In this document: positions 5,728 to 57,538 of the stretch, piece after piece
Layout: every line of letters begins with the position of its first letter
How positions within the stretch are numbered: position 1 is the first letter of the stretch
Source of the DNA: Oligoflexia bacterium
Lineage (GTDB): Bacteria > Bdellovibrionota_G > JANQFH01
Assembly (NCBI GenBank): GCA_028277945.1
Contig: JANQFH010000008.1
Location: 195,442 to 259,441, forward strand
Direction of reading: 5' to 3'
DNA: 64,000 nt
Notes under the pieces: generated by a model
What the model was told of the DNA's origin: nothing
What the model saw: the letters and a program-made list of their open reading frames with translations, nothing else
The model's database searches: none
Translations under genes and position numbers: made by a program

Positions 5728-5736
5728 TCTCCAAAC

Positions 5737-6675: not shown

Positions 6676-6688
6676 GGCCTACAGTGAG

Positions 6689-8248: not shown

Positions 8249-8458
8249 GTTGTGTACTTCTAACTTAGGTTTTAGTGTTCTCTCTAATAATATGAAGAAC
8301 TTCTGTCAACGGGTACTTTTCATCAGCAACTCAACCAACACAAATGTGTTTCATTTTTAGACAAGTTGTTTCGTAAGACGACACTTAAATGATGGTTCAA
8401 TCTAGCTTCGAGAGCTTGACCCTGTCTATAAAATAAGCAATCATCCTGGGTTAAGAGT

Positions 8459-13601: not shown

Positions 13602-14607
13602 AAGGAACGACCCTCTTGGAAATACCGCGTTTGGCAAACTACCTATCAAAAAACTGGTACGTGCTGCAGTCTTCCCTGATCGCTTTTTTGTAGGCAAAGC
13701 AGGTATCAAGCTTGTCAATTGGCAAGGAAATAATCAGTACCTTTGTGGCTTCTCATGCAGCAGACAACCGGCTATTGCCGAAAATGTAGCTGTTTTCGAA
13801 CTCTGTGAACGCTTGACAGCAAAGTATGAATTTCAATCTTTTCTGGGCACGAATATGAATACTTTCAGAGCGTTTACCTGGCCCGATGGGAATCCAGCTA
13901 GAGTGACAAAATCTCAATTATTCCTTGGTCCAAATCCATTTTCCCAATTTGGACAAGAGGCAACTGGCCTAGGTTTTGGCCCTGATTATCATCAAGCATT
14001 AAATCACGCTATTCTTGAATTGTTGGAGAGGCACATCTGCGCAGGTCTTTGGTATGAAGCAAAATATAGGCTATGCAAGGCAATCGACAGAGTATCTTTA
14101 GACTCCTTTGACATTTTCTACTATACCCTCCACAGACCGAAGATACCATTTGTTCTAGCCATTATATACTCGAATGAACTTGAGGTGCTTTCAGTCGGCC
14201 ATGCAATAAGATCTACGTTTGAGGAGGCGAAGGAAAAATCCTACTCCGAAGCAGTGATGCTGTTAGATTGTGTTCTCCACAAGGATAACGGTATCTGTAC
14301 CAATTTAAGAACTAAAAATCGTTTGCTTTCTCAAAGAGGTCCCTTAGCAAAAGAACGATTCCAACAATTTAACGATCTGACAGTAAACGTGGCAGCAGCA
14401 AAAAATATCCTAAGCCGATATTTTTCAATATCTGAGATTACTGCGGCGGTGCTTGGCACTAATGACGATATCGAAATTATTCAACTTTTCCGGGATAGAA
14501 ACTTCTGGTCTCTACGAGCACTTTCGAAGAAGGTGGCTACCTTGGCAGAACGTCGACAATCGAATCGATATTCAGAAAAACAAAAGATTCTGGACCCTTA
14601 TTGCTAA
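13582..14607 (+). CDS. short YcaO-like domain protein
   Basis: 341-aa ORF with YcaO signature segments VAVFELCERLTA and TGLGFGPDYHQALNHAILELLERH; overlaps the upstream HExxH gene. Confidence 0.6.
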   Translation: MIVRKFERNDPLGNTAFGKLPIKKLVRAAVFPDRFFVGKAGIKLVNWQGNNQYLCGFSCSRQPAIAENVAVFELCERLTAKYEFQSFLGTNMNTFRAFTWPDGNPARVTKSQLFLGPNPFSQFGQEATGLGFGPDYHQALNHAILELLERHICAGLWYEAKYRLCKAIDRVSLDSFDIFYYTLHRPKIPFVLAIIYSNELEVLSVGHAIRSTFEEAKEKSYSEAVMLLDCVLHKDNGICTNLRTKNRLLSQRGPLAKERFQQFNDLTVNVAAAKNILSRYFSISEITAAVLGTNDDIEIIQLFRDRNFWSLRALSKKVATLAERRQSNRYSEKQKILDPYC

Positions 14608-14619
14608 GATCAGCATACA

Positions 14620-15888
14620 TTAGAGCTTGTCGGAAATAAGGCTATATCTTTTGGCCGTGCTCCACAACAACAGTGTTGAAGCAAGCCCCACAATGCCAGA
14701 AAGACCAATTAACTTGCCTATGGCTGGATCGGCTTTCATAAGTACAGTGAAGATTACCATGGACAGTATATACCCGACTCTGCCATAAGCCTGTCCTTTC
14801 GATATTGAGTAGGTAAACCGATCTTGGCTAAATTGTGACTGAATCTTGTTTGAAAACATTATAAGGGAAACACCGTACAGGATACCGATAATGATCATTA
14901 GGGCAATAAAGGAGTCTCGAGAAGTTCCTCCAGCAAGAATTAGTGTTAGACTTAGAGCTACAAGAAGAAGAATCAATTTATGAATACTACGGAAGTACAC
15001 TTGAAATGCATTTGGGAAGAGAGTAATTGCGGTTAATGCTAGGAGGAATCCAAAGTAGATAGACGATGGACCTGAAAGTATTCGTGTAATTCCAGAAAGA
15101 TGTTTTGATGCTGCTAGCGATTGCATAAGAATAAAGGCAACCGCTCCAAAAGCTAAATTTGTCAAAAATAGAAACTGATTGTTCCATTTTAGCCAATGGT
15201 CGTCTTTTAAATCTATGATACGTTGATTTGCATTGTTCTGAAAAACATCAACCGATACTTGTTGCATACTGGTTATCTTTTTCATAAAGGATAGTAAAAG
15301 GAAGAGTCCAAGTAGAGAAATAAGGTAGGTTATGGAGTTTACGATGCAGACGACAGACCATCCACTAGTTAGCAGCAACGCTGCGACTGAAGCACTTACC
15401 ATGTTTACTCCACGATTTGCAGCATTCGAGAACGCTAAAGCTCTAGGTAGAGGGAAAAAATTATTCCTATCCAGGAAGATAGGAATAATGGTGGTCAGTT
15501 GTCTTGTTATAAGTGATAATGTACGCATTACTATCATCAGAGCGAGAAATAAGCCGTAAAATAGGTGCCTTGGAAGATATGATATTAAGATAGGCAGAAT
15601 GGTCAGTCCCATTAGGATAAATTCGATACATAGGGCGTAAAAAATTCTATCCTTGATATTTATAATGCGATCAATGTATTTTCCAAGAAAGGGTGCTAAA
15701 CCAATTTGCAGTATGGCATCTGTAGAGAACAGAATCCCCGATAACAATATTCCCGAACTATCGTCAAGAAAGAGTGCAACTGCGAAGAAAAGTAAAAGGC
15801 TATCCCCAAGTTTGGAAATAATCGATAAAGAAAGATACCCCCAAATAGGCGCCTTTGTCATGTTGTGGATTGGCTTTTCTCTATCCAT
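14620..15888 (-). CDS. MFS-type transporter
   Basis: 422-aa polytopic membrane protein (about 12 predicted helices), MFS-like loop motif GKYIDRIINIKDR; AT-rich. Confidence 0.7.
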   Translation of the reverse strand: MDREKPIHNMTKAPIWGYLSLSIISKLGDSLLLFFAVALFLDDSSGILLSGILFSTDAILQIGLAPFLGKYIDRIINIKDRIFYALCIEFILMGLTILPILISYLPRHLFYGLFLALMIVMRTLSLITRQLTTIIPIFLDRNNFFPLPRALAFSNAANRGVNMVSASVAALLLTSGWSVVCIVNSITYLISLLGLFLLLSFMKKITSMQQVSVDVFQNNANQRIIDLKDDHWLKWNNQFLFLTNLAFGAVAFILMQSLAASKHLSGITRILSGPSSIYFGFLLALTAITLFPNAFQVYFRSIHKLILLLVALSLTLILAGGTSRDSFIALMIIIGILYGVSLIMFSNKIQSQFSQDRFTYSISKGQAYGRVGYILSMVIFTVLMKADPAIGKLIGLSGIVGLASTLLLWSTAKRYSLISDKL

Positions 15889-16149: not shown

Positions 16150-17643
16150 CTAGCGTACCCACAAGACAGATGTATCATGTCTCGTTAGATTGATACTTTC
16201 AGGAAGCATGCCCGCAGAAGCACGATCATCGTGTACCAGGGTCTCAATAGCTCGGCCATCCGCAGATTCACCATGAAAAGCAAAGTAGCCACACCAATAG
16301 CTTAGTGGATCTGCCATGGCATTCAAGTAGGAATAGACATCTATGAGTTCAGAACGTAGCTGAGCAATCTCCGTTTCTGTTTCTCCAAGACCAAAACTCA
16401 GTTCTTCGATAGTCTCTTCCAAGTCGTGAGATGACCGCAAGTCGCCGCTGAAGCAGGTCGCAATAGCAGAAAGTCTTTCCTTCTCTAACCGGCTCAGCTT
16501 TCCTTCGTCGTGAAGTACTTGAACTTTTTGTCTAAACTCCTGTGGATTTTTCTCGATTTCCTCTACAGTAAAACTAATCGACTCTCTCTTATTTTCCAAA
16601 ATTGACAGGCCTCTCAGCGCGTCGATCAGTGTATCTATGACTACTACATCCTCGCCTTTCAAATCCTTGCGAAATTTTTCGAGACTTTGGACAGCCAATT
16701 CGACTGTCGCAAGACTTTCTCTAAAGTAGCTCCCCAGGGCCCTTCGAACAGTCATAGCATCTCCTATTAAAGAGACGAGTTCTCTTGAAGAGTCAGCAAT
16801 AGCCTCTAATCTTCTCAACCTCTGGCCTATTTCCTGACAAGGTTCGAGCAAAATTTTTCTTCTAGCACCTACTCTCAATATCAAGAGAGGAACATGATAT
16901 GGCCGATAGAACATCACAACTTCTGATAGGTCTGTCCTCGACCGCTCATCATATGAGCCCGTAATCGGATGAGGGTAGTATCGCCCTCGAAAATAATTAT
17001 CCACCACTCTTCTAATCAGTTCCCCTTTGAGACGAATTTCCAAAATTCCAGGCTCATCGATTTCAAAAGCTAGTTGAACAAACTCTGGACCAAGTTCAAA
17101 TTGCCTACCCATATCTGCATTTCTGTACATACCCCTATCGGCAAACATAATAGGTTCGCTTAGGGCAAAGTGGGAAACCCCATAATAAGCTTCCCTTTTC
17201 CTATCCCATCTCTTCAAGCTCTTCCAGGTAGTTAGAATGGTCTTTGAGTTTAAACGAACATCAACGTTTACCTTTAATCCGTCTAAACTCCTTTCCAGAT
17301 CGGTTCTCTCACCTCGCCGTTCTTCAAAACTTGCTCCAACAAAATGTAGATCTAGCTCCAAGAGGTACGGCCCTGGGCGAATGATTTTCACTCCTGGGAA
17401 CCTTAGTTCTTTGTTGCCATCTATGATATCAGGATAGTCCGAAGATAGACTGGTAATAAATCTACCGTTTTCCATCCTCCCAAAGAGTCGAAAATTAGTA
17501 ATATCAGCGTAGCTTCCAATTCTAGGACCACGAACTCCATGATAAAAAGTATCTCCAGCCTCTGCAGCACGATCACATAGCGCTACTAGTGCAACCAGAG
17601 ACAATAGGAGCCAATGGTACTTTTGTGTCTTTAGAATTATCAT
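16150..17643 (-). CDS. secreted hypothetical protein
   Basis: 497-aa ORF with N-terminal signal peptide; no recognised motif; the C-terminal end may be derived from the adjacent SBP5 remnant. Confidence 0.4.
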   Translation of the reverse strand: MIILKTQKYHWLLLSLVALVALCDRAAEAGDTFYHGVRGPRIGSYADITNFRLFGRMENGRFITSLSSDYPDIIDGNKELRFPGVKIIRPGPYLLELDLHFVGASFEERRGERTDLERSLDGLKVNVDVRLNSKTILTTWKSLKRWDRKREAYYGVSHFALSEPIMFADRGMYRNADMGRQFELGPEFVQLAFEIDEPGILEIRLKGELIRRVVDNYFRGRYYPHPITGSYDERSRTDLSEVVMFYRPYHVPLLILRVGARRKILLEPCQEIGQRLRRLEAIADSSRELVSLIGDAMTVRRALGSYFRESLATVELAVQSLEKFRKDLKGEDVVVIDTLIDALRGLSILENKRESISFTVEEIEKNPQEFRQKVQVLHDEGKLSRLEKERLSAIATCFSGDLRSSHDLEETIEELSFGLGETETEIAQLRSELIDVYSYLNAMADPLSYWCGYFAFHGESADGRAIETLVHDDRASAGMLPESINLTRHDTSVLWVR

Positions 17644-17648
17644 GCTAT

Positions 17649-18392
17649 TCAGTCTTTTCGCGGTGAAAAAATTACGCCCCCAAGCGTTTCAAAAGGCCTT
17701 CCTATATCTACATCTACCTTCAATACATCGCGGGTCTTGATTCTTGCCCAAAGCGTAGTCGGATCCACACGCCTTTCCTCTTCCATCCAAAACTCGTACT
17801 CGCGAACGAAGAATGCTGGAGAGGTAATATCCGCATCAAAAGCGTTCGGATTAAGATAGTAAATTCTAGGTACCCTATGTTGATGGACCCAATCTATGTC
17901 AGGTTTCTCACTACGAGGCCACTTGTGTGTTTCATAGTTGACCTCATCCACACGTGTTCCGTCGTAGCGGCGACTGTGTTTGAATGTTGCCTTGAGCTTC
18001 CGATTCTCTAGTGCTGATTTTATAATTTTGACTTTCCCAACTCCTGCATAGTGAAAAAATAGAATTACAAGTGCCGTTCGGCCTGAATCGATGTCCTGTA
18101 GAAGTTTCTGAGGAAGAACGGAATCTCTAATTTTATCCGTACCTTCCCTACTTAGGAAGTCAAAAAACCAAATTAGGAAGTCTGATCGAACGAAAAAGAA
18201 AAGTCGATCACCAACGGGATCATGAAATACAAGCGGTTCTTTTATAATCTCCTCCGCCTCGTTCTCGGAAAGCTTCACTCGATGAAAATATTTTGATTCC
18301 TTAATCACTTTGTCCGATGGAAAGTAAGAATCAGCATACAACACTGGCGTCACCACTATAAGAACACTCAAACACAACGTAAAGCGATACAA
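17649..18392 (-). CDS. secreted hypothetical protein
   Basis: 247-aa ORF with signal peptide, 5-bp gap to neighbours in a same-strand gene string. Confidence 0.4.
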   Translation of the reverse strand: MYRFTLCLSVLIVVTPVLYADSYFPSDKVIKESKYFHRVKLSENEAEEIIKEPLVFHDPVGDRLFFFVRSDFLIWFFDFLSREGTDKIRDSVLPQKLLQDIDSGRTALVILFFHYAGVGKVKIIKSALENRKLKATFKHSRRYDGTRVDEVNYETHKWPRSEKPDIDWVHQHRVPRIYYLNPNAFDADITSPAFFVREYEFWMEEERRVDPTTLWARIKTRDVLKVDVDIGRPFETLGGVIFSPRKD

Positions 18393-18395
18393 CTT

Positions 18396-19142
18396 CTACT
18401 CTCCAAAACCCTTCACAAAAAACTTCTCATCGATCAACCGCAGACCCTCATAGACCTCATACTTGATCAAGGCACCCTTGGTATCGCGGTAGAGCCCTTT
18501 GCGCACTTGTCTTGGTTTTTTGTAAAGGCCCTCAACCTTGCTCAAAAAGGCTGCCAGTTCCTCTCTACTAAAAGGGCCATGCCGTTCCCAATCGAGCCAA
18601 TCAGGGCCAATGGAGACCACCACCGATAGCTCACGGCTGCCAGGTTTTACTCCACCAAAGAGCTTCTTTGCCATCCTCTGACTGCCAAGCGTCAGGAGGT
18701 GCCAGTTGCGGCTTTCAAAATGCTCTCGCTTGTTCTGCTGATCCATAAACATAAAATAGACGCCTTCGCTCCAGGAGCTACGATCCAGATTGACGCCTTT
18801 TTTGAAGCGCTCTAAAAATGTTTTTAAATCGGCAGGTTGATCATGCCAATGCCGTATGATCCTTTTGATAAAAGACCAGGTTGAGATGACAGACATGCCC
18901 TCCTCATCTTGCGACTGATCCAGAGAGTCGAGTTTTTCTAATTCATAACCTCTAAACAGTTCCGAACCTGTATCAGGCTCTGTTACCAGCAGCAGAGCAC
19001 CATCTTTAAGTTCCACAGTATCTCCAAACTCTATAGGTCTTTCGATATCCTCAGGAACTCCAGGGATATCAATCACTGTATCTCCCTGCTGTGCAAAGGG
19101 AGAGTCTGGATGGGGGGGTCGTTTTTCTCTCTCACGCATCAC
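18396..19142 (-). CDS. hypothetical protein, possible immunity/partner protein for the upstream RES-domain protein
   Basis: 248-aa ORF whose start overlaps the stop of 19139..20923 by 4 nt; no signal peptide; acidic. Confidence 0.4.
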   Translation of the reverse strand: MMREREKRPPHPDSPFAQQGDTVIDIPGVPEDIERPIEFGDTVELKDGALLLVTEPDTGSELFRGYELEKLDSLDQSQDEEGMSVISTWSFIKRIIRHWHDQPADLKTFLERFKKGVNLDRSSWSEGVYFMFMDQQNKREHFESRNWHLLTLGSQRMAKKLFGGVKPGSRELSVVVSIGPDWLDWERHGPFSREELAAFLSKVEGLYKKPRQVRKGLYRDTKGALIKYEVYEGLRLIDEKFFVKGFGE

Positions 19143-20923
19143 TCTAGGGCCTCAAAAAGAACGACGTTAAAGCCATCTGGATTTCTTGCCGAGGGTACGA
19201 CAATACCACGATAGTGCAGCCGCGCCAATTCTCCTATTATTTGTGTTATTGAGTAATCCTCAGAGATCAAAGCTTCAGGAGCTATATTTAATAGCTCCCT
19301 GACACTTGGTTCATTAAGATCGAGCATGTTGTCGAGTGTGACATAGCGGCTTCTTGTTTCAATCACCCCCTTGACACCATGGGCTCGCATTTCCGCGGCG
19401 ATGGTCTGCCGATCGCCGCTCATGTAAAGCGCGCTTCTTCCCGGCGCTGAATAGCGATGGTTGGCGGCAATATTACCCTGCGGTATTTTCCACGAACCTG
19501 CTCGGTAAACATCACCTCTGTATTTACTTCCCTTGACAACACCTTGAACCAGCTTTTTGGTGGTATCAGGCCCCAAAGCTTGGCTCGCCCTTATCACCGC
19601 AGGCAGATGCTGCTGATCAAAGAGCTTTCTTGCCAAGCCACCACCACCGCGCCCTAGCAAACTGGTGGTCCCTCGGACCATGACCGTGCCTGACAGGACC
19701 ATAGGCACCATCATGGAGACAACTGTCTCTAAAGCCATCTCAAGCGGCAAGCTCGCCTCGACAACTCCAGTTGACGAATCCTCTTGTAGTGCCCACAAAT
19801 GGTAGTCTGCTGCCGCCATTTTGAGTGCTCCTGACAAGAACTCGCCGTCTCGGATATCTTGCACTCCCTCAATCATTAAATAGGCGGCATCTATAAGATG
19901 TGGCAGATCTGGCAGGGTTAAGGCATGATCGAGGGTAATCTCCACATGTTGCCAGATGTGTTGGGAGAGCCTCTCACCTAGATCGCGCTCTAACAGCGCC
20001 AACTCATCGAAGGTCTCAACACGGATGCGCGCCATGGAGCTGTCTGCTTCCAAATGGAGTCGACCTTTGGCCGTTGATTGAGCGCGTTCTGCTCGGTCAA
20101 TGAGTTCGTCTAATGTCTCCTGTATCCAGCGATGTCGTATGAGATCTCGCATGCTGCGAAGCTCGTGAACCCGCCGTGAGAATGCCGCGTAGCCATAGGC
20201 AACCACCTCCTTACTTGAAGCCCGTTCCACAGCCGCCAGGGCAACATCGGTGGAGGTGGCCGTGAGCCCCAGAAATAGTGGCAATCCATGTCTGTTTTCA
20301 GGAAGTGGCAACTGAGCTTGCTGTTGAAGTTGCACAAAAAGAGAGGAGTTGTGGATCATGTCACTAGCGGAACTGTGAGAAGCGAGATCGGAACCACCCC
20401 TTTCGTGGAGGGTGCGAATGTCGAGGCCGCTTGCAGATGATTCATCTCGAAGCTGATCATCTTGAGCTTGCTCTGCAGAGAGGCTTAGATGTTTGTTACT
20501 CTCTGCAACTGCAGTGTTGGCTTGAAGTAGGCTGAGGCCACGTTGCAACCCTGTAAGGTACTGAACTCTACGCCGAGCTTCCACATCACTGTGAGTCGGT
20601 GCTGAGCCTTCTTCATCCTCATCATCAAATCCACCGATCTCTCCTCTCGGGCTATCAAAGAAAGGGTCAAATCCTTCATCTTCTGTTTTGTCTTTGGGTT
20701 TTTGAGAGGAAACGATAACAATAGGCGTGTCAAAAACAATATGGACGTTGCCATCGGAGTCAACGGTCACATTTCCTGGCTCTGTGGTGTAGTCGTGCTC
20801 TCTTTCCTGAGCTGATTCAGTTTGTCCTGCATCATCTTGTGCAACAAGCTCTCTCTGCAACGGCGAAAAAAGACAAATCGTCGCGATCAATAAATAAAGC
20901 AGGCTTTTACATGAAATTTTCAT
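19139..20923 (-). CDS. secreted protein with C-terminal RES-domain (NAD-targeting toxin-like) module
   Basis: 594-aa ORF; signal peptide; C-terminal region with RES-domain signatures YRAGSW ... RYSAPGRSALYMSGDRQTIAAE ... VVPSARNPDGFNVVLFE. Confidence 0.6.
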   Translation of the reverse strand: MKISCKSLLYLLIATICLFSPLQRELVAQDDAGQTESAQEREHDYTTEPGNVTVDSDGNVHIVFDTPIVIVSSQKPKDKTEDEGFDPFFDSPRGEIGGFDDEDEEGSAPTHSDVEARRRVQYLTGLQRGLSLLQANTAVAESNKHLSLSAEQAQDDQLRDESSASGLDIRTLHERGGSDLASHSSASDMIHNSSLFVQLQQQAQLPLPENRHGLPLFLGLTATSTDVALAAVERASSKEVVAYGYAAFSRRVHELRSMRDLIRHRWIQETLDELIDRAERAQSTAKGRLHLEADSSMARIRVETFDELALLERDLGERLSQHIWQHVEITLDHALTLPDLPHLIDAAYLMIEGVQDIRDGEFLSGALKMAAADYHLWALQEDSSTGVVEASLPLEMALETVVSMMVPMVLSGTVMVRGTTSLLGRGGGGLARKLFDQQHLPAVIRASQALGPDTTKKLVQGVVKGSKYRGDVYRAGSWKIPQGNIAANHRYSAPGRSALYMSGDRQTIAAEMRAHGVKGVIETRSRYVTLDNMLDLNEPSVRELLNIAPEALISEDYSITQIIGELARLHYRGIVVPSARNPDGFNVVLFEALE

Positions 20924-22077
20924 TTTGCCAGGCTCAGAATCAACTGTAATAGAAATGTGCCGTCCCCCTCCAAGGCTTTGGCGATCTCCAACAAGAGTTC
21001 AAGCTCTTTTGCCTTTTCAGTATCTCCTTGCGCCTTCAAAGCGCTGATTCTTTTCTCAGCCTCTGCAACTGGATTGAATCCCTTGACAATACCGGCAATT
21101 CTCTCGATATCCTCTTGACTATGAGCAACAAGTACTTCCAGGTCTCCTTTCAGCTCAGCATCGCTCAACTGTGGTAACACCTCCTCCCGGATCATGTGCG
21201 TTGCTGTAGACCACGTGAAAATGGCTTCTAATGCGGCAAAGAAATCTCGATTGACCAAAACCTCTTTTTGAACCTCAAGCTTCAACGAGGAGAAGAGATC
21301 GGAAATGTCGAAAAGAAAATCAATCCGTTGAAAATCAGCAAAGTATTGTTCCTTGAGCTCCTTATAAATCGCCGCTGACAGTTCAGCGGGTGCAGCGGCA
21401 AGATAGGAGGCAAGCTGATTGTCACTGCGATCGAGTTTTCGCAGCAGAACATCAACCGCCTGTACGAGCCTATCCCCAGTCTCCAAAGCTTCTTTAAAAC
21501 CAATAATGACCTTGCGGTCCTCTTCTCGAATCCGCCGTTCCACTTCCCGAAATCCTTCTAAGTAGAGAGGATCTAATCGGTTACCAGGCGGAGGTATCCG
21601 TTCATCGATGTCTTCTCGGGTTAGCTCTGGAATAACCGCTGATAGACCGGAAGTCGCCGACAGGGCGACCTGTCGAGAGCCTGCAAGCAGGTTTCTCGCT
21701 GCATCAATGTGCGAGCGGACTTGAAAGGCGAGCGACACAGCCTGACGTATCTCTTCTCTAGAGGATGCTGTTTTAACGGCGTTGACTTTGGCAAAGGGAG
21801 CCTCCAACCCTTCTTTGGTACGGCGAAATTCGTTAAGGGCAGCCGTTAGTCGACGCGTTGACCTCGAGGCCCTTGCATAAAGACCCCGATAGTGCTTATG
21901 CGCTGCGGTGCGTCCCTCACTCTTAACGGTAGCGCTCCTGGTCTGCTCGTATTTAAGCTGGAGACGCCGCAGCTCACCTTCCAGTTCCTCTACCGACTGC
22001 GCAAAGGCAGGTGAAAGAACAAAAAGCGAGATCAGCAACGATTTTAAGACCGACATGGGTAAGTATTTAAAGCACAT
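20920..22077 (-). CDS. secreted coiled-coil hypothetical protein
   Basis: 385-aa ORF with signal peptide (LISLFVLSPAFAQS); overlaps the downstream gene start by 4 nt; similar N-terminal organisation to 54768..55964. Confidence 0.4.
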   Translation of the reverse strand: MCFKYLPMSVLKSLLISLFVLSPAFAQSVEELEGELRRLQLKYEQTRSATVKSEGRTAAHKHYRGLYARASRSTRRLTAALNEFRRTKEGLEAPFAKVNAVKTASSREEIRQAVSLAFQVRSHIDAARNLLAGSRQVALSATSGLSAVIPELTREDIDERIPPPGNRLDPLYLEGFREVERRIREEDRKVIIGFKEALETGDRLVQAVDVLLRKLDRSDNQLASYLAAAPAELSAAIYKELKEQYFADFQRIDFLFDISDLFSSLKLEVQKEVLVNRDFFAALEAIFTWSTATHMIREEVLPQLSDAELKGDLEVLVAHSQEDIERIAGIVKGFNPVAEAEKRISALKAQGDTEKAKELELLLEIAKALEGDGTFLLQLILSLAK

Positions 22078-22313: not shown

Positions 22314-24110
22314 CTAACTCTGAGGCCGCAGGCCAATTGGAACGAGGCTAGCGAGACTTTTAGGAATACATTTCACACCAAGTCGAGCACAATTCATGAG
22401 GACAACCTCCTCTTCAAAATGGCTTGTCACAAGTATAGCCTGATCTTGAAGGTTGAGCTCTTCAATGAGATCGAGCCCGGTTTCCTTAAAGTTGAGAAGT
22501 TCATAGTCACACAGAAATAAAGCATTGTGTGTATCATTCTTCTCAACCCATGTTCTTATGGCGTCGGGTGTAGACAGATTGTCAAGTTTGATCCTATTTC
22601 CTCCTCCGTTGCGTAATGCATGAAATCGCTCTCGCCAAATCTGATGAATCGTAGGATCGTCGTCCAAGGTTACAATGCGGGAGTCTGGCGCAACTTCAAG
22701 TCTGGGTACAAACCAAGACGGAGGACTTTCTTTGGGTAAAAGCAGAGATATCTGAGTACCTTGTCCTTCCGTACTCTCAATTTTAAGCTCACCTCCCCAG
22801 CTTTCAGCGGCCACTTTTGCATGATAGACTCCAAGACCTAGACCACTATCCGTTCCCCCCTTTCCATAGGTCACTCCCTTTTGGCCCAGTTTTCCGAGAA
22901 TGTCCGGTGGTATTCCTGTCCCGTCGTCTTTTACATAGAGACACAATGTTGAATTATTATGTTGGAACAGGCCAATTTCGATGACACCCTCATCGGTCAT
23001 TGCTTCAACAGAGTTATTTACAAGATTTGAAATTACACGCTTAAGCTCAACAGCACTGACTTTGGCAAACAGTCCGTAGGATTTTTCATCCAATTTGGCC
23101 TCAATTCGGATTCCTGTTTTAGTTCGGAATTGACCCCGTTTTTCGCTGACGATACTTTCTATAATACTTGATATCAACCAAGTCCTTCTCATGGCTTGAT
23201 TGGGCCTCTCGTCATGTTGAGCCTGATGTATATTTCTGCCCAGCAAGTTGTTGGCGATATCTTTAATACGTTGGGACGCATTACGTATAAGAACGCGTTT
23301 CTCTTCCGGAATGTCTACAAGAGTGCCAGCCAAAAGATCCAATGCTGCTACAGGAGCTCGTATATCATGCGCGATTTGTTGAGCCACTTGGTAAACAGCT
23401 TCCGCCTTTTTTGTTTCGATCCTATATTGATTTGACTGAAGAGTTTGTTGCGCAAGTTTCCTAATGGAAGAGGTGAGAATAACAACTTCGGACAGATCAC
23501 CCTTGATATTTGGCTGATCAAGGAGTGAAAGATCTTCTAAGTTGCCACTTTCAGCTGTTTGACTAAGCGTGTGTAGCGGTGCTGAGATCCGATGTGCCAC
23601 TCTTTTTAGCATAAGGAAAGCTATAGCAGCGATAGTCATTAAGACAAATAGAGATACTCCCATAATCCGGTAGTATAGACCACGAATGATTCCGGTATTA
23701 AACCTCATACTAACCATAGCCGCTGGTTGTGTCTTTTCGTCGTCAAAATATACAGTGCGTTCAACGACAAATTTACTCGTCCTCGACACTTCTGCAGTTT
23801 CTGGTAAACTCTCGTAAATAACTTCTCCTCTTATGTTCGAAATAATAATGTTATCTATGGCCTCTTTTTTTATCAAGAGATTGCACTTTTCACGGATGCT
23901 GAGGTGAGAGCCGGTAAGAATTTCGTAGCGAATATTCTCGGAAAAGAGTTCTAAAATCATCTCATGTTTTGACGCAACTAAGTTATCGAAACTCTTGTTA
24001 ACCGCAAATAGAATTAGGATTCCCACAAGAATTAAACCCAATGATACTGTTATTGAAAAAGTTCTGAGTAAACTGGTGAATACAGTATGTTGACGTTTAG
24101 GCATTTCCAC
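22314..24110 (-). CDS. hybrid sensor histidine kinase with C-terminal receiver domain
   Basis: 598-aa ORF; two TM helices flanking a periplasmic domain, H-box IAHDIRAPVAAL, HATPase_c motifs (NLVNNSVEAM, DDGTGIP, GLGLGVY), REC-like C-terminus (TLDDD ... LFLCDYEL). Confidence 0.85.
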   Translation of the reverse strand: MEMPKRQHTVFTSLLRTFSITVSLGLILVGILILFAVNKSFDNLVASKHEMILELFSENIRYEILTGSHLSIREKCNLLIKKEAIDNIIISNIRGEVIYESLPETAEVSRTSKFVVERTVYFDDEKTQPAAMVSMRFNTGIIRGLYYRIMGVSLFVLMTIAAIAFLMLKRVAHRISAPLHTLSQTAESGNLEDLSLLDQPNIKGDLSEVVILTSSIRKLAQQTLQSNQYRIETKKAEAVYQVAQQIAHDIRAPVAALDLLAGTLVDIPEEKRVLIRNASQRIKDIANNLLGRNIHQAQHDERPNQAMRRTWLISSIIESIVSEKRGQFRTKTGIRIEAKLDEKSYGLFAKVSAVELKRVISNLVNNSVEAMTDEGVIEIGLFQHNNSTLCLYVKDDGTGIPPDILGKLGQKGVTYGKGGTDSGLGLGVYHAKVAAESWGGELKIESTEGQGTQISLLLPKESPPSWFVPRLEVAPDSRIVTLDDDPTIHQIWRERFHALRNGGGNRIKLDNLSTPDAIRTWVEKNDTHNALFLCDYELLNFKETGLDLIEELNLQDQAILVTSHFEEEVVLMNCARLGVKCIPKSLASLVPIGLRPQS

Positions 24111-25611
24111 CTAATCCTTTTCGGTGCAATTTCCATAATTCATGAAAAAATGTCTCTCCAAATTTTGGCATGTCTATTTGCTTTTTTAAGAGAATAGGAT
24201 AGTCAAAGGCCAGAATAGGGACAAAAAAATGTCTGCTTTCAAAATCTACCAGCTCTCTCTCGTACAGTTTTAGGCGTCGCAAGCGTTTTTTAGTAAACCG
24301 GATTGCCGAAATCCTATCCAAGAATTCTTTAACGGGAAATAATCTTTCAACGCCAAATAGCTTGCTCTGTAGAGGCCACAGGTAGCCATCTGGATCAGTT
24401 AGGCCTGCACCAAAAATAAAAGAGATCAGATCGAAATCCCCTGTCTTGTAGTAATTCAATAGCAGGGCCAAATCGACGATTCGAATATCCGGAACTAACC
24501 CTAGTCGTTCTAAAAGGGAGGAAACGCTATTGATGTGTTGCTGAGACATAAAACCTTTGTATACAACGACTCGAAATTTGTGGCCCTCAAGTTTCGGATA
24601 TTTTGTGACAAAGTTATCTTCAGTGATTTGGCTTTTTCTTGGTCCATAATAAGACATCGGAAGAGTACCCTCGGGAAGGAAGGTATGAAGAGATTTCTGG
24701 AAAGGCACTAGATTTTTCTTGATGGTGGATAGTGATGAAATAAGATAGCTTAAGTCGCGTCGTAGATTAGAGGACTTTAGATGGGCTCTATGTGTGTTAT
24801 ATAGGAAATGTAACACAAACACATTGTTGGGAAGAACCACATCAAAGCTGCTGCTATCAAGTTTGATTTTCGCAAGTTCATATGGGGCCACACCCAAAAA
24901 AACATCGAATTTGTTGGCCTCTATCAAGGTTCTTAAATCACTATAATCGTATCCTTCAACCACAAGTTTATAAATATTTTCGGAGGAAGTTCTTGGTTCA
25001 AAGCTCCAAGTTTTTCCTTTATTTGTTAGACTTGCAGTCATTAAACCGGAGCCGGTACAACAAAACGATTCTTTTTCGACAATGCCAAAAAGAGGATTGT
25101 TAAGAAGCTTTAGAAAAGGAGGATAGGGCCCCTTGAGATAAAATCTAATGTGTTGTTCGTCTATTGCCTCGACAGCATTGGTGCCTGCTTTGGTCTTGGG
25201 TTGCAGGGCAAGCTCCAAAATCGATCGTGAAGAAAAGTTTGATTCTAAAATTCTGAGAAATGAGTGCTCAACATCTTTGGCAGTGATTTTTCTTCCATTA
25301 TGAAAGCGTAGGTTAGGTTTTAGCTTAAAAGTGTATTCTCTGCCACTATCGTTTATGCTCCAACTTTCGGCTAGTTCAGACACAACAATACCTCTCTCAT
25401 TCAGGCGGACTAGACGCGAAAATACACAGGCGCTCATCATAAGGTGCGATACCGATACTATTTTCATTGGATCTAGAGTTTGTGGGAGAATGCTCACACC
25501 AATCTTTAGTTCATTGTAATTCGTCAGGTCTTTTGCCAGCAAATCAGTACTCAAAAAGCATATTAAGAATAGCACGGAGAAAATATTGAATTGTTTAGCA
25601 CTCTTTTTCAT
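24097..25611 (-). CDS. family-5 extracellular solute-binding protein, orphan
   Basis: Start chosen at ATG 25611 (MKKSAKQFNIFSVLFLICFL signal peptide) rather than the upstream in-frame start at 25701; stop overlaps the histidine kinase start by 14 nt. Confidence 0.8.
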   Translation of the reverse strand: MKKSAKQFNIFSVLFLICFLSTDLLAKDLTNYNELKIGVSILPQTLDPMKIVSVSHLMMSACVFSRLVRLNERGIVVSELAESWSINDSGREYTFKLKPNLRFHNGRKITAKDVEHSFLRILESNFSSRSILELALQPKTKAGTNAVEAIDEQHIRFYLKGPYPPFLKLLNNPLFGIVEKESFCCTGSGLMTASLTNKGKTWSFEPRTSSENIYKLVVEGYDYSDLRTLIEANKFDVFLGVAPYELAKIKLDSSSFDVVLPNNVFVLHFLYNTHRAHLKSSNLRRDLSYLISSLSTIKKNLVPFQKSLHTFLPEGTLPMSYYGPRKSQITEDNFVTKYPKLEGHKFRVVVYKGFMSQQHINSVSSLLERLGLVPDIRIVDLALLLNYYKTGDFDLISFIFGAGLTDPDGYLWPLQSKLFGVERLFPVKEFLDRISAIRFTKKRLRRLKLYERELVDFESRHFFVPILAFDYPILLKKQIDMPKFGETFFHELWKLHRKGLGGNA

Positions 25612-25616
25612 TTGTG

Positions 25617-39021: not shown

Positions 39022-39038
39022 CAAAATGTGAATGAGTT

Positions 39039-52292: not shown

Positions 52293-52658
52293 TTACTTAC
52301 CCCATCTTTTTTTAAAACCTTTTTCTAGGTTTATGATCTCGAATACATCGCACTCCACTGTAGCGCATAGCAGACTGTTTTCATATTCCCATAGATTGAC
52401 GTAGTAGACCTCCGGTCTATATCTAGATGCCTTTGTTAGTGCCCATAATTCATTGCCATGGAGATCAAAAGCACGGATATTCTGTGGGTCTTTGGATCTA
52501 AAAAGTACAATAATGATGTTATCGATCAGATATCCTACTGTAATCTTCCCATATGTTTTAGGAAGGAGTATGGATTTGTGATTGTCTACTTTTATTTCTA
52601 TTCTATTGTCTCTTTCTAGAAGTTTTTGTAATTTCACCATATTATTGGTTCGCTCCAT
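52293..52658 (-). CDS. immunity-like small protein (downstream of large secreted toxin-like gene)
   Basis: 121-aa ORF overlapping the 3' end of 52634..54766; no signal peptide. Confidence 0.4.
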   Translation of the reverse strand: MERTNNMVKLQKLLERDNRIEIKVDNHKSILLPKTYGKITVGYLIDNIIIVLFRSKDPQNIRAFDLHGNELWALTKASRYRPEVYYVNLWEYENSLLCATVECDVFEIINLEKGFKKRWGK

Positions 52659-54766
52659 GCTTCAACCGATGATTCTAGAGGTTCATCAATCAATTCCCAT
52701 TGAATGCCTCCACCCGGAGTACCGAATTCATCAACTTTGTCGACGATTCCCTTTCTTAGAACAGTACTCGTAGGGACACGAACTTCGACCATGAAGGTCA
52801 TACTATTATTTGGAGGAAGAGAATATAAATCCCTTACAACACTTTTACTCAGAGTTCGAGGATCAACTTCCATTAACCATGGCCCCATTTTGTCAGAATT
52901 ATCTCCAAACACTCGATAGAAGATTTTTGTTTCTTTTAGTTCTATTGTTTCAACAATCTGATTTGGGGCATAGGGCCTGATACCTTTGGCATATTTCCAA
53001 TAGCTGTCAACCGCACCGGCGGTCTGTTTGCCAGGAAGAGCAGCTTTTGCCAGTTTGGTCCAGGTCGAGGCTTGTGTGAGCTCTTCTGGGGTTATCTGGT
53101 CCTTTTGTACGGCGCGGAAGCCGCGAAGGGAGAGGAGGACAGGACGTTTTTTGACGAAGGCTTCTACGGTCTCTGGGCCCAGCTCTGCGACCACCGTGGC
53201 GAATCCGGCGCTGGCCTGCTTTTCTCCGGAAATGGCCATCTTTAGGGCGATGGCTTGGGTATAGGGGCCGAGACGGGGCAGGGTATCGACAAGAACGCCA
53301 GACTGTAATGCCTTTGCCATCCTGGCGTGGTGGATTTTGGCGAGGGGGATGCCAACTTTACTCAAGACAACGCGTAATGATTGGACGCCGATGGCTCTGG
53401 CAAGACCGCCGATGGTATTAACGCCGAGGCTGCCGAGTGCCAGGACCGTTTCCCCAGCTATCCCTGGGGCAGTGATGGCGTCACGATCCACAAAGCCATC
53501 GGTGAGATACTTGGCGATGGCTGCTGCGGTTGCTGCTCGCAGGTAGTCGCCTTGGGAGAGGGCCTCTTGGCTACTGCGGATCTGCTCCTGCAGTAGGGCA
53601 GGTGAGTACGGTTGGTTGTAAGGGGTGATCTTACCGGCAACCACCTGCTGGTTGTAAAGGGCAGCACGGATCAGGGTGTTGAACACGGCACTTTCGGCTG
53701 CTGCATCGATCTCCGCCAGTCCTTCGTGCAGAGTGCGTTCAAAATCGTAACTGCGGAGAATTCCCGCCAGTCCTGAACGGAGTGTGGCGAGTTTCGTGCG
53801 CATGCTTTCAAAAAGCTCACGGGTTGCCAGCATCGAGGCATGCAAGTTGGGATCTTCAATCAGATCGGCAACAGCCTCGATGGTAAGCAGATGCAGATCA
53901 ACAGCTTCGGTGAGCTCTAAGACAAGATACTCGTCGTTGACACGAATGGCCTCCTCGACTTTGGCTCCTAGAGGCGCGTACGCAGCTGCCAGGGACTGTT
54001 TGAGTGGGTCTCTGAGAAGAGAGAGAGGATTTTGAAAGACATCATGGAAGATCTGTTCAGGGTTCCAGAGATTTTCTAGATCCACCTCCTGCATGGCTTC
54101 TTCAATGAGCTCTCTGTGGGTGGCACGGGCCATGTTTGCTACTGCCTTGTCCCCCTCTAAGGTATCGAGGCCGACGACAATGGTGTTTTCACTCAAGTGG
54201 CTCCATTTGAGATTTGCCTGTTGATGAAAGCGCTGGTAAAGCGCTTGCATCCGGGGGATTAAGGATTGTTGTTCGTAACCTTTCCACTGTTGGTGTTTGA
54301 TGCGGATCACTTCTGAATTGGGACGAACAGTGTGCAATGGCTCAGGTCTTTTAGGTGGCTCTCTAGGATCGACCTCACCAGGATGAGGTCTGTCCCAGTG
54401 AAAGGGATCGAAGTCATTAAAATGATCATGACCGTTGCTGTTGGGAAGGTCGTCTTCAGCATACTGTTCATCGACCGGATGAGGTCGTTCTGTCGGGTTT
54501 TTTGGGGATTCGTTCTTTACGGGAAATTCAACATCACGCTCCATCGTGACGGTGATTTTTCCTGTTTTAGGATCTATATAAACTCCAGGATAACCTCCAG
54601 GCATGATGTCTTTAGGCGCGTGGTTATTTCCTGGTTTTTCGACCTCGCTCCCATTGCCATCACCGCCGCCTGTTTCCTGAGCGCTAGCTGATAAATCAAC
54701 AGCTGATGTGGCCATGATATAGAGAGTCAACAAGAAGGTGATAAATCTCTTCAGAGAGTCCTTCAT
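52634..54766 (-). CDS. large secreted polymorphic-toxin-like protein
   Basis: 710-aa ORF; signal peptide, Gly/Pro-rich region, long helical region; C-terminal about 100 residues contain an R ... TST ... QWE arrangement (FYRVFG, PTSTVL, IQWELID) compatible with, but not proving, an ADP-ribosyltransferase-like domain. Confidence 0.45.
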   Translation of the reverse strand: MKDSLKRFITFLLTLYIMATSAVDLSASAQETGGGDGNGSEVEKPGNNHAPKDIMPGGYPGVYIDPKTGKITVTMERDVEFPVKNESPKNPTERPHPVDEQYAEDDLPNSNGHDHFNDFDPFHWDRPHPGEVDPREPPKRPEPLHTVRPNSEVIRIKHQQWKGYEQQSLIPRMQALYQRFHQQANLKWSHLSENTIVVGLDTLEGDKAVANMARATHRELIEEAMQEVDLENLWNPEQIFHDVFQNPLSLLRDPLKQSLAAAYAPLGAKVEEAIRVNDEYLVLELTEAVDLHLLTIEAVADLIEDPNLHASMLATRELFESMRTKLATLRSGLAGILRSYDFERTLHEGLAEIDAAAESAVFNTLIRAALYNQQVVAGKITPYNQPYSPALLQEQIRSSQEALSQGDYLRAATAAAIAKYLTDGFVDRDAITAPGIAGETVLALGSLGVNTIGGLARAIGVQSLRVVLSKVGIPLAKIHHARMAKALQSGVLVDTLPRLGPYTQAIALKMAISGEKQASAGFATVVAELGPETVEAFVKKRPVLLSLRGFRAVQKDQITPEELTQASTWTKLAKAALPGKQTAGAVDSYWKYAKGIRPYAPNQIVETIELKETKIFYRVFGDNSDKMGPWLMEVDPRTLSKSVVRDLYSLPPNNSMTFMVEVRVPTSTVLRKGIVDKVDEFGTPGGGIQWELIDEPLESSVEAWSEPIIW

Positions 54767-54767
54767 G

Positions 54768-55964
54768 TTAATCTTCTTCTAGTTTGTTGAGAGCTAGTTC
54801 CGCGAACGCGGCATATGTGCCATGGCTGTCTTCGTTAGCGATTTCTGCGTAGAGTAGAAGTGCCTTTGCCTGTTCAAGCTCTGCTGGCAGGACTCTGCCG
54901 CTCTTTTCTAGCTTGCGGATACGCTTTTGGATCCAATAGGAAGGTGGATTCTTTGTGACCAGGCGTCGGTATTTTTTGACCTTTGCTGTCCATTCAACGG
55001 CCAGCTCTTTTGCCTTTTTCGCCTCTTTTTCGCGCAAATCAAGCGACAGTAGGGCATTAAGGAGGATGAGAGAACCTGTTTGCAGGACTTCTAACCTTCG
55101 TAGGGCCTCAAAGTAACGGTAGTGCAGGAGTAAAGCATCTTGAAACTGTTGCTCCAGCTCCACCAATACATTCTCGGCATCGTAGTAGGCGTCAAGACTG
55201 ACTTCTGCATGAGCCAGCCTCTCCTGAAAATCCTTGTACATACCATGGGCTAAAACTTCGGAGGTGTGGTCGAGGTATTTCTCCAAAGTTTCGCCATACT
55301 GCTCGAAAATGCGCCCATAAGCTTGCTCGACTTGTGGCAATGGTTGCCTGAGCTTTTCGCAGTAATCCACCAGAGGGGAGAAACCATGTGATTTGAGCCA
55401 AGAGATTGCACCTGCAAGGGATGGCTTGTAGCCGTATTGCAGATCTTGTGAATATTCGGGAGGAATGGCATCTACAAGTCGGTCGGCGTTGGTTTCGAGG
55501 ACGATGCGACACTGTGCTTCCATGGACGATAACGACCTACGGTATCGTTCCAAGGCCGTGGTGGCTTTATGTTCTTCCTCGGCAAACCCAAAAGCCGCCG
55601 TATGGAGCTTTTGTGTCCACTGCTTTGCCTCTTCAGCCCCTAGACTCTCAACCTCCGGAGGTTGTATTACTTGGACATTCTCAGCAGCTACAGCAATGGT
55701 CCTGAATGCAGACTTCATCACCTCACGATGTTTGACCCCTTGTAGATATGCCCCATTCAAGAAATCGTAGGCTTGCAGGCGGGCCTTTTCATGGACTATC
55801 TTGCGTTTTAGCTCATCTTTTTGCGTCTCAATTTCTCTCCTCTCACGTGCCATTTCTTCGACAGATTGTGCCTGACTAAGAGAAGGAAGTGAGACAAACA
55901 ACAAAAGTAAAAGAGGAAGATTGAACAGGTTTGTCATAACAACGTTACTTTTAATCGCCCTCAA
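54768..55964 (-). CDS. secreted coiled-coil hypothetical protein
   Basis: 398-aa ORF with signal peptide (LFVSLPSLSQAQS); 1-bp gap to the downstream toxin-like gene. Confidence 0.4.
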   Translation of the reverse strand: MRAIKSNVVMTNLFNLPLLLLLFVSLPSLSQAQSVEEMARERREIETQKDELKRKIVHEKARLQAYDFLNGAYLQGVKHREVMKSAFRTIAVAAENVQVIQPPEVESLGAEEAKQWTQKLHTAAFGFAEEEHKATTALERYRRSLSSMEAQCRIVLETNADRLVDAIPPEYSQDLQYGYKPSLAGAISWLKSHGFSPLVDYCEKLRQPLPQVEQAYGRIFEQYGETLEKYLDHTSEVLAHGMYKDFQERLAHAEVSLDAYYDAENVLVELEQQFQDALLLHYRYFEALRRLEVLQTGSLILLNALLSLDLREKEAKKAKELAVEWTAKVKKYRRLVTKNPPSYWIQKRIRKLEKSGRVLPAELEQAKALLLYAEIANEDSHGTYAAFAELALNKLEED

Positions 55965-55969
55965 TAGTG

Positions 55970-57538
55970 CTAATAGCGGCGTCCTACTTGGTCTCCATAT
56001 CTATCTAGTATAGGAGTTTGCGTCCTGTACTTTTTATCGCCTTCGATAGCCCCAATAGCGGCGTCCTCCTTGGCCTCCATACACTTTGTATAGAGCAGAT
56101 CGCGTCCTGTATCTTTTAAGGCGCGAATAAACTTTTGCAGGTGTTTGGTTTCATCTTGCACTTCAAAACTCTTGGAAATCAGCATGGCATGCAGCTCTGT
56201 TAAGCGAGTGAATGCTCTGCCTATCTCGTCTTCCGGGCCGACTGTATCTGTAGGTTCCTGCATAAGGCTGTAAACGGCGATCAGGCGCTCATAGTCGCTT
56301 AGCGACAATTCTTCGTCTTCATAGAGCTCTTCTACTGTCTTCCGAAACGCTTTCGGGCGCTTCTCGATCTTAGCTAGCGTCCATTCCTGCAGATTCCCTA
56401 CTTTTTTGAGTAACAACAGCCCTTCGAGTGTTGCGGCTGTAAGTTCTAACTCTTGGAAGGTATCGTCGTACTCCTCATCGTTTATAGCGCGGAGACGATC
56501 GATGATTCTTTTTAGCGAGGATTCGGATTTCTTGAAATAGGCTTTGAATATCCTGCGTGCCTCAAAATTGACCATTAACGCTCTTTCAAGATCTTCTTTG
56601 TCTGATTTAATTAGCGTTTCGAGCCAACTCAGGCGATTTTCTGCATCACCAAGGTTTGTGCAAGCTTCGAGCACAGAGTCTTCATAAACAAGGAGATCGT
56701 AACCAACGAGGTTAAGGGAGTAACTACGAAGCATCCCAACAGGCATTTTTATCTTTATTGTTGTGTTTCCCAGCAGGTCTAACTGCTGTCTCATGCTGGA
56801 CCTTGCTGTGTAGGTCCATCGCTGTGGTCCTCTTTCTTGACACCAAAATCCGTCTTTAGGATTATGATGGTGTGCGTGACGCCCATTTAAATTGCAGTAA
56901 CACCAGCCACTGTCACCCGTGTAGGTGGGTTTTCCATAGCGCCAATGATCCTCGGGAAAGACGATTTCAACACGGTGCATACGGTATAGAGAGTTTAACT
57001 TGCTTAAAGGGGTGTCACCGAGAAATGCATTGGTCGTCTGTTCGGTGCGAAATTTATTCCAGTCTATGACTGCGAGTGGAAGAGGAAAGTTTTCAATATC
57101 ATACCTCTTATAAGATGCTGGAGGATCTAACGCAGACGAGAAAGGTCGATAGCTGACGGTTGTTTGGGGAAATGGATATTTGTATTTAAACAGTGTTTCG
57201 TCATTTTGTTTATAATAGAGCTTAAAATAGACGTTGCTTCCTAAGAGCTGCTGCTCCAGCTCTCTATGTACTTCGGAATCATCAATTCCTTCGCCTTTCG
57301 CACCCATCTTGCCAAATAGCCGAACTTTGTAGGTGGCGGGATAGAGATATGATTCTCTTTCGTCAATATCCTCAAAATCTGAAAGGAATAATCCCAAGGA
57401 AGGAAGGCCTTGCTTCATCGCATAGCTGTTAACGTAGTAAATTTCACTCTTAGCCCAGGAGATTGGTGGAAAAATAATTAGGACCATGGTTAGAAGCAGA
57501 AAATATAGCCAGGGGATATGTGTTACTCGGTTTGACAT
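55970..57538 (-). CDS. membrane-anchored hypothetical protein
   Basis: 522-aa ORF; N-terminal TM/signal segment; His-rich patch HAHHHNPKDGFWC; first gene of a same-strand string ending at 51914. Confidence 0.4.
   Translation of the reverse strand: MSNRVTHIPWLYFLLLTMVLIIFPPISWAKSEIYYVNSYAMKQGLPSLGLFLSDFEDIDERESYLYPATYKVRLFGKMGAKGEGIDDSEVHRELEQQLLGSNVYFKLYYKQNDETLFKYKYPFPQTTVSYRPFSSALDPPASYKRYDIENFPLPLAVIDWNKFRTEQTTNAFLGDTPLSKLNSLYRMHRVEIVFPEDHWRYGKPTYTGDSGWCYCNLNGRHAHHHNPKDGFWCQERGPQRWTYTARSSMRQQLDLLGNTTIKIKMPVGMLRSYSLNLVGYDLLVYEDSVLEACTNLGDAENRLSWLETLIKSDKEDLERALMVNFEARRIFKAYFKKSESSLKRIIDRLRAINDEEYDDTFQELELTAATLEGLLLLKKVGNLQEWTLAKIEKRPKAFRKTVEELYEDEELSLSDYERLIAVYSLMQEPTDTVGPEDEIGRAFTRLTELHAMLISKSFEVQDETKHLQKFIRALKDTGRDLLYTKCMEAKEDAAIGAIEGDKKYRTQTPILDRYGDQVGRRY

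Follow-up and report, generated by a model that had tools for sequence, protein, structure and literature searches.

A 64,000-nucleotide (nt) stretch of contig JANQFH010000008.1 from an Oligoflexia bacterium (the window; all coordinates are positions in it) carries, on its minus strand between positions 22077 and 16150, five tightly packed open reading frames (ORFs) in the order g1-g2-g3-g4-g5, the second of which encodes a long protein that ends in a RES toxin domain. The minus-strand genes are named g1–g5 for this RES operon and h1, h2, h3 and h5 for a second cluster in the window. In sequence, the five g genes look like one operon. The intergenic regions that bound them measure 236 nt and 261 nt, the stop codon of g1 overlaps the start codon of g2 in an ATGA junction, g2 ends in GAG TGA with the TGA stop inside the GTGATG that opens g3, and the gaps between g3 and g4 and between g4 and g5 are 3 nt and 5 nt. 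A crude hydrophobicity and charge rule, applied to all signal peptides discussed here, finds signal-peptide-like N termini in g1, g2, g4 and g5; g3 is the only gene of the operon without one. Scans for promoters and terminators gave results at chance level, a scan for flanking repeats returned only short, chance-like matches, and tRNA and Rfam searches of the window yielded zero matches.

The g2 gene (19139..20923, minus strand) encodes a predicted exported toxin precursor of 594 amino acids (aa). Its residues 1–28 (20840..20923) form a putative Sec-type signal peptide (MKISCKSLLYLLIATICLFSPLQRELVA|QDD), with a basic n-region, a hydrophobic core of 13 residues and a small residue at −1. Residues 29–397 (19733..20839), delimited by composition, make up an orphan carrier region, in which residues 29–200 are of low complexity and acidic or polar (20% D/E; 39% S/T/Q/N/G/P) and residues 201–397 contain more hydrophobic residues and are probably helical. 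A pre-toxin segment follows at residues 398–439 (19607..19732) and consists of a hydrophobic 19-mer at 398–416 (LETVVSMMVPMVLSGTVMV; Kyte–Doolittle 1.68) and a linker rich in Gly and Arg at 417–439. The remaining residues, 440–594 (19142..19606), form a RES toxin domain of the Tox-RES type.

The initial annotation of this locus, made from the letters alone, had recognized RES-like motifs at the end of the 594-aa protein. These motifs lie at residues 490–503 (RYSAPGRSALYMSG) and 575–591 (VVPSARNPDGFNVVLFE) of g2, and the check that had been set beforehand, a hidden Markov model search of approximately residues 440–594 against the RES profile, was positive: Pfam PF08808 matches residues 482–591 with 47.0 bits, where the gathering score is 23.2 (E=3.6e-12). 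In an alignment of 24 sequences of the domain (A1), g2 keeps every invariant column (N484, H489, R490, Y491, Y500, E511, L534, L536, P577, S578 and A579), as well as the near-invariant R474 and R580. Thus R474, R490, Y500, E511 and S578 all fall in columns that are invariant or at least 90% conserved; the conserved polar residues of Tox-RES have been given as ‘R, R, E, S’ (Zhang 2012, PMC3482391).

A profile built from A1 and compared with the sequences of the PDB has a sole match, MbcT (6fkg; E=1.3e-8), the NAD+ (nicotinamide adenine dinucleotide) phosphorylase toxin of Mycobacterium tuberculosis. The printed profile alignment places Y500 and E511 of g2 on Y58 and E69 of MbcT; judged by spacing, R490 would correspond to R47 and, by spacing only, R474 to R27. 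Mutation of R27, R47 or Y58 abolishes the toxicity of MbcT (PMC6436930). The AlphaFold2 model of residues 440–594, made with A1, has a mean predicted local distance difference test score (pLDDT) of 94.6 and a predicted template modelling score (pTM) of 0.88, and adopts a RES fold, which resembles that of ADP-ribosyltransferases (ARTs). In a Foldseek search of the PDB, RES toxins fill the 12 best places for this model, MbcT first (template modelling (TM) score 0.68, E=1.6e-7), followed by NatT, ParT, the Pseudomonas putida RES protein and VPA0770; below these the matches fall to noise (diphtheria toxin, E=0.18). The NCBIfam model for the toxin–antitoxin (TA) subfamily, Res_ParT_toxin, reaches 13.5 bits on g2 against a cutoff of 110. 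Judged by sequence and by model, the C-terminal RES domain of g2 is real and intact, and the RES identity proposed at the outset is borne out by the fold.

The distribution of this RES subtype bears on how the domain is used. When 1.84 billion cluster representatives were searched exhaustively with phmmer, 238 relatives were found at E≤1e-3 (110 at E≤1e-10), all of which align solely to the final ~130–180 residues of g2 (from ~410/460 to 594). Nothing in this collection matched residues 1–370, no Pfam, NCBIfam, PADLOC or PHROGs family was found over the carrier, and full-length g2 is a singleton in public collections. The pre-toxin segment is weakly common to a few relatives, the alignments of which (P0002, P0029 and P0034) begin at query residues 408–419. 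Among the 149 of the 238 relatives that were listed, which span 89 to 4,517 aa, 142 of 156 domain hits end no more than 10 residues from the C terminus of the protein. Their carriers include prePAAR/PAAR-DUF6531-Rhs proteins of the type VI secretion system (T6SS), ESPR-TPS-filamentous haemagglutinin proteins of the CdiA type (type V secretion system, T5SS), SpvB/TcdB-FG-GAP-Rhs proteins with PT-HINT and Rhs proteins with PT-TG. A DPxGL-type Rhs motif lies upstream of the domain in 21 of the 149, and a signal-peptide-like N terminus occurs in 24 of 103 full-length relatives. The domain is thus nearly always found at the extreme C terminus and recurs on unrelated carriers, the hallmark of a polymorphic-toxin cassette in the sense of Zhang et al. 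(2012). Pattern scans returned one locus in reference genomes and two loci in metagenomes.

RES domains have been described in this setting before. Tox-RES was listed as a polymorphic-toxin domain with trafficking by ‘T2SS, T5SS, T6SS’ (T2SS, type II secretion system) and immunity by ‘Imm51; DUF2384 in TA systems’ (Zhang, de Souza, Anantharaman, Iyer & Aravind 2012, PMC3482391). EAT5, a delivered RES toxin associated with extracellular contractile injection systems (eCIS), is toxic in Escherichia coli and is countered by an adjacent immunity gene (PMC8213781). Because Tox-RES was catalogued in 2012 and EAT5 has been validated, the general architecture of g2 was already known, and the novelty that the initial annotation implied was overstated, given that Sec (‘T2SS’), T5SS and T6SS trafficking are all in that catalogue (PMC3482391). 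Three related loci that encode RES proteins with signal peptides adjoin mobile or defence genes: an AAA_22/nSTAND3 NTPase (L005:9089-12349), a phage-type integrase (L006:6317-7420), and SIR2 with a resolvase (L009:6274-7576). These neighbours are consistent with RES cassettes travelling in conflict islands.

The gene that follows g2, g3 (18396..19142, minus strand), encodes a predicted cytoplasmic protein of 247/248 aa and is the candidate immunity gene. The 4-nt overlap with g2 reported in the initial annotation is confirmed for the GTG start at 19142, which gives 248 aa; the public gene call uses the ATG at 19139, which gives 247 aa and a 1-nt overlap. With either start, g2 and g3 overlap and are translationally coupled. 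The open run of g3 extends over 251 codons, and 200 shuffles of the window reach a maximum of 250; its codon usage is coding-like solely in the annotated frame (+0.27 bits per codon, with −0.31 to +0.01 in the other five). g3 is a genuine coding sequence. It has neither a signal peptide nor a hydrophobic segment, and across both clusters only g3 and h3 lack a signal-peptide-like N terminus. A cytoplasmic location would fit a role in immunity, because a protector against an NAD+-targeting enzyme must sit in the cytoplasm.

In six of the seven related loci with downstream sequence, the RES gene is followed on its own strand by a small ORF with no Pfam match. This ORF overlaps the RES stop codon or comes close to it in five of them (L003, L005, L006, L007 and L009) and begins ~200 nt downstream in L002; L008 is the exception. 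Two neighbour families recur. The first, immS, is a short downstream family common to the four closest RES relatives, with members of 76–86 aa in L003, L006 and L007 (L003:1280-1513, L006:3699-3959 and L007:1755-1985) and a 181-aa ORF in L005 (L005:7252-7797; E=2.4e-9). These ORFs overlap the RES stop codons and share the core motif W-L-R-K-P-I-P-A-L-G, with no Xre helix-turn-helix (HTH). The likeness of immS to the toxin-binding domain of ParS/MbcA (DUF2384) is weak and sub-threshold (Pfam E=0.006; ParS in the PDB, E=0.1). We consider immS to be probably the immunity family of the RES clade closest to g2. The second, immL, is a Pfam-less 243-aa protein in a Pseudomonadota metagenome-assembled genome (L002:1576-2307) that is homologous to two adjacent short ORFs, possibly a split gene (L005:7813-8145 and 8202-8561), which follow the RES toxin and immS genes at that locus.

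All other genes of the operon encode predicted secreted proteins. g1 (20920..22077, minus strand; 385 aa, or 378 aa in the NCBI gene call, which starts from M8) is a predicted secreted accessory protein, probably helical, with the signal-peptide-like N terminus ...SPAFA|QSVEE and no Pfam, NCBIfam, PADLOC or PHROGs family. g4 (17649..18392, minus strand; 247 aa) starts with a TTG directly after the g3 stop, and its predicted signal peptide depends on that start: the public call begins 12 codons later (235 aa), which removes the signal. The final gene, g5 (16150..17643, minus strand; 497 aa), encodes a predicted secreted accessory protein. Across g1–g5 there is no credible PADLOC or PHROGs match; PHROGs gave zero, and the PADLOC output consisted of two weak LmuB-type matches, both below threshold, to coiled-coil stretches of g1 and g5.

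Searching g1–g5 against the six-frame translation of the window uncovered a second, paralogous cluster on the same strand. It comprises h5 (55970..57538; 522 aa, predicted secreted, a g5 paralogue), h1 (54768..55964; 398 aa, predicted secreted, a g1 paralogue), h2 (52634..54766; 710 aa, a signal-peptide protein in the position equivalent to that of g2) and h3 (52293..52658; 121 aa, in the position equivalent to that of g3), all on the minus strand. The N termini of h1, h2 and h5 are signal-peptide-like and that of h3 is not. g1 is homologous to h1 along its full length, the two being collinear over 359 residues (pairwise E=3e-5; z=15.8 versus shuffles), and both predicted mature proteins begin with AQSVEE; g5 and h5 are homologous over a C-terminal region of ~130 residues (pairwise E=4e-10; z=13.4 versus shuffles), and between g4 and the N-terminal portion of h5 the similarity is marginal (z=3.9). 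h2 sits directly after the g1-like gene and is followed by h3, which overlaps its end by 25 nt, repeating the g2–g3 pattern. h3 is weakly coding-like, solely in its own frame, and has no Pfam or PHROGs family; h2 has no Pfam, PDB or homologue match, and its C terminus does not resemble that of g2 (z=−0.2). As far as sequence comparison goes, the two loci have their accessory genes (g1/h1 and g5/h5) in common and differ in cargo. The g and h proteins that were looked up in a collection of 15 billion proteins are all singletons or near-singletons, represented by one NCBI contig and one Logan assembly. The stretch 52293–57538 (minus strand) may hold a second toxin/immunity pair that uses the same helper genes. 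The C terminus of h2 was considered as a TNT/DUF4237 NAD+ glycohydrolase on the basis of a motif (FYRVFG...GGGIQ); Pfam at E≤10, PDB sequence and homologue searches were all empty, and the candidate was dropped.

Comparison with known systems places g2 nearest to the Tox-RES polymorphic toxins (PMC3482391), in which a larger exported protein carries a RES domain at its extreme C terminus, with a small, presumed immunity gene directly downstream. Their catalogued trafficking includes plain Sec signal peptides (‘T2SS’), and relatives of the g2 domain are such proteins; an Rhs-RES example delivered by a T6SS is Tfe2 of Pseudomonas fluorescens F113 (PMC7970981). The carrier of g2 differs from these in having no Rhs, filamentous haemagglutinin, PAAR, HINT, PT-TG or other recognized module and no homologue, g3 resembles neither Imm51 nor DUF2384 and far exceeds Tfi2 (92 aa) in size, and the six-frame translation of the window has neither a second RES copy nor an array of orphan cassettes. 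EAT5 (Geller et al. 2021, PMC8213781) is likewise a RES toxin that is delivered and does not belong to a TA pair, and the immunity protein encoded beside it is non-canonical; it differs in being cargo of a contractile injection system and in having the immunity gene upstream; no eCIS, T6SS or phage-tail genes were found in the window.

With the RES-Xre type II TA systems (MbcT-MbcA, ParT-ParS, NatT-NatR and the P. putida RES-Xre pair), g2 shares the catalytic fold, the conserved R/Y/E/S residues, probable NAD+ consumption and a neutralizer that probably plugs the active-site cleft (PMC6436930). Those toxins, however, are stand-alone cytoplasmic proteins of ~145–250 aa encoded after an Xre-HTH/DUF2384 antitoxin that also regulates transcription, whereas the domain of g2 ends a 594-aa signal-peptide protein and its candidate protector is downstream and unrelated; the gene upstream, g1, encodes a predicted secreted orphan, and g1–g5 contain no Xre or Xre_MbcA_ParS_C domain. 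In gene order, the operon matches the Neisseria MafA-MafB-MafI system (PMC4287609; PMC7738311): the gene for a secreted accessory protein precedes that for a signal-peptide protein with a C-terminal toxic domain, and the gene for the cytoplasmic immunity protein, in the operon the candidate g3, comes next. Maf genomes also have several such loci, paralogous to one another and differing in cargo. There, the outer-membrane protein MafA, encoded beside MafB, is required for MafB export across the outer membrane, and MafI provides immunity (PMC7738311). The likeness is one of gene order and signal peptides only: at E≤1, Pfam searches of g1 and g2 found neither the DUF1020 of MafB nor a MafA family, g1 lacks a lipobox and, unlike MafA, seems to be helical, and the g operon has the extra secreted genes g4 and g5. 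By analogy with Maf, g1 and g5 are probably dedicated export or delivery helpers.

We favour, with moderate confidence, the reading that g2 is a Sec-exported protein of the polymorphic-toxin type with a RES domain that consumes NAD+ in a target cell, that g3 is its cognate immunity protein and that g1 and g5 are helpers. Under this reading, Sec would export g2 through its N-terminal signal peptide, and the protein would be released or presented at the surface, possibly with the help of g1, g4 and g5, and would enter a competitor by some route. The orphan carrier (residues 29–439) would present the C-terminal RES domain (440–594), which would break down NAD+ in the cytoplasm of the target, through phosphorolysis or hydrolysis in the manner of MbcT and other RES toxins, and so stop growth; inside the producer and its kin, g3 would bind this domain and block the active-site cleft. 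The earlier description of g2 and g3 as a secreted polymorphic toxin with its immunity protein stands well for the toxin, given the relatives confined to the C terminus and their delivery-scaffold carriers, and stands in part for the immunity protein, where position, coupling and the lack of a signal peptide are the evidence. On these positional grounds we would put the immunity role of g3 only a little above even. More doubtful, and offered as a conjecture, is that g1/h1 and g5/h5, possibly with g4, constitute an undescribed Sec-dependent helper set that carries large orphan cargo across the outer membrane into competitors. Such a set would be Maf-like although unrelated in sequence to MafA, and would be present as at least two paralogous loci in this genome, the cargo being the RES toxin or h2, each with its own cytoplasmic immunity protein of a new family (g3 or h3).

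Several observations weigh against the favoured reading. The c-region of the g2 signal peptide holds R and E and is atypical, such that a signal anchor is possible at the N terminus. No recognized trafficking or pre-toxin domain was found in g2, and no secretion apparatus in the 64-kb window; the envelope type is assumed. Databases contain no orthologues of g2, and polymorphism proper, in which one carrier has varying C termini, was not observed: g2 and h2 were tried as carrier paralogues and rejected, as neither BLAST nor shuffle-calibrated Smith–Waterman alignment was significant (carrier z=2.5). For g3, no homologue was found in an index of 5.8 billion proteins, in six-frame searches of plasmid and phage collections or in the PDB. 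It has zero Pfam matches at E≤1 (as does g4), and is therefore neither Imm51 nor Xre_MbcA_ParS_C; NCBIfam, PADLOC and PHROGs likewise returned no family. The possibility that g3 is a divergent member of immS or immL was rejected after hmmsearch --max and hhalign were negative, and its 247 aa make it three times as long as immS proteins; no hidden copy of immS was found in the six frames of the window with the immS profile. The single-sequence AlphaFold model of g3 is unusable (pLDDT 35). Finally, some RES toxins, such as ParT, ADP-ribosylate phosphoribosyl-pyrophosphate synthetase (Prs) and do not deplete NAD+, and the same may hold for g2, as sequence alone is compatible with either chemistry.

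A rival reading is that g2 is an exported effector directed at prey or a eukaryotic host and not at kin, and that g3 has no immunity function. In that case g3 could be a chaperone, an adaptor or an unrelated member of the operon, and export itself would protect the producer. The absence of g3 homologues and of any match to the families downstream of related RES toxins would suit such an effector, as would the related signal-peptide protein at L008 (P0014), which has no same-strand downstream gene, the proposal that toxins without adjacent immunity genes are likely to be aimed at eukaryotes (Zhang et al., PMC3482391), and the many secreted orphan proteins and the type IV pilin encoded in the window. 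We nevertheless think it unlikely, as a coupled downstream ORF is the rule at the related loci (6/7), g3 and h3 alone lack signal peptides in their clusters, which fits a cytoplasmic protector, and the stop/start overlap of g2 and g3 suggests stoichiometric co-production. That g2 acts inside its producer seems very improbable. The N-terminal hydrophobic segment would then be a membrane anchor, a view to which the atypical c-region lends some weight, and g2–g3 would form an intracellular TA or abortive-infection module whose RES domain acts in the cytoplasm of the producer once g3 is lost or displaced. An N-in signal anchor would, however, place the C-terminal RES domain in the periplasm. Every solved RES protein is a type II TA toxin and TA-type genes abound in the window (Fic, HipA and a PIN-like ORF), yet the nearest relatives of this domain are the C termini of Rhs and CdiA proteins, and the order of toxin first and protector downstream is that of polymorphic toxins, whereas the antitoxin of RES-Xre pairs lies upstream (PMC6436930). 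Moreover, no Xre HTH or DUF2384 domain was found nearby (Pfam on g1–g5; the frames of the window with the immS profile), the score of g2 on the TA-subfamily model is far below its cutoff, and there were zero PADLOC hits.

A further alternative leaves delivery as in the favoured reading and changes only the chemistry: the RES domain would act like ParT, by ADP-ribosylating a protein target such as Prs, and not by bulk depletion of NAD+. RES enzymes have an ART-like NAD+-binding site in common (PMC6436930), and the fold search also matched ParT (6d0h, 6d0i) significantly (E=2.5e-4 to 7.8e-4), but at a TM score of 0.53 against 0.68 for MbcT. MbcT is the closest solved relative both by sequence, as the sole PDB match of the profile, and by fold, and MbcT-like chemistry is favoured for that reason. 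As the Res_ParT_toxin model is also far from matching, and EAT5 is annotated by its authors as NAD+ phosphorylase/NADase-like (PMC8213781), we consider ParT-like chemistry improbable.

With the favoured reading of an exported RES toxin and its candidate immunity protein, the locus would add one more well-supported example of RES as an exported weapon and not as a TA component. RES as an exported C-terminal toxin is known; potential novelty is confined to the carrier and the immunity candidate, both orphans, and to the duplicated genes for predicted secreted helpers. If confirmed, g3 would represent a new immunity family for RES toxins. The delivery by Gram-negative bacteria of polymorphic toxins that have only a Sec signal is poorly understood outside the Neisseria Maf system, and two paralogous helper sets around different cargoes would offer a genetic handle on it.

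The window is rich in conflict genes. These include a Fic/DOC protein of 396 aa (9717-10907, plus strand), a full-length HipA kinase with HipA_C and Couple_hipA (50651-51907, plus strand) and a 132-aa ORF that is PIN/VapC toxin-like by eye only (58138-58536, plus strand). Three similar modules, at 3907-8248, 22314-26933 (plus 13582-15888) and 35658-40130, combine a histidine kinase (HATPase_c) with an SBP_bac_5 solute-binding protein, and are variously accompanied by major facilitator superfamily transporters, truncated YcaO-domain proteins (5737-6675 and 13582-14607) and a DUF4135 LanM-dehydratase-like protein (39039-40130). These modules may represent repeated units for peptide sensing or related to ribosomally synthesized and post-translationally modified peptides. 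Base composition is strongly heterogeneous over the 64 kb, at 38–57% GC per kb, and the GC content at third codon positions (GC3) of a SelB selenocysteine-specific elongation factor gene (488-2617, minus strand) is 0.59, markedly above most of the window. GC3 is 0.48–0.49 in g1–g3 and 0.37–0.40 in g4, g5 and the flanks. The higher GC3 of g1–g3 was considered as a sign of recent acquisition but is not diagnostic, because the HipA, Fic, SelB, h1 and h2 genes are equally high or higher.

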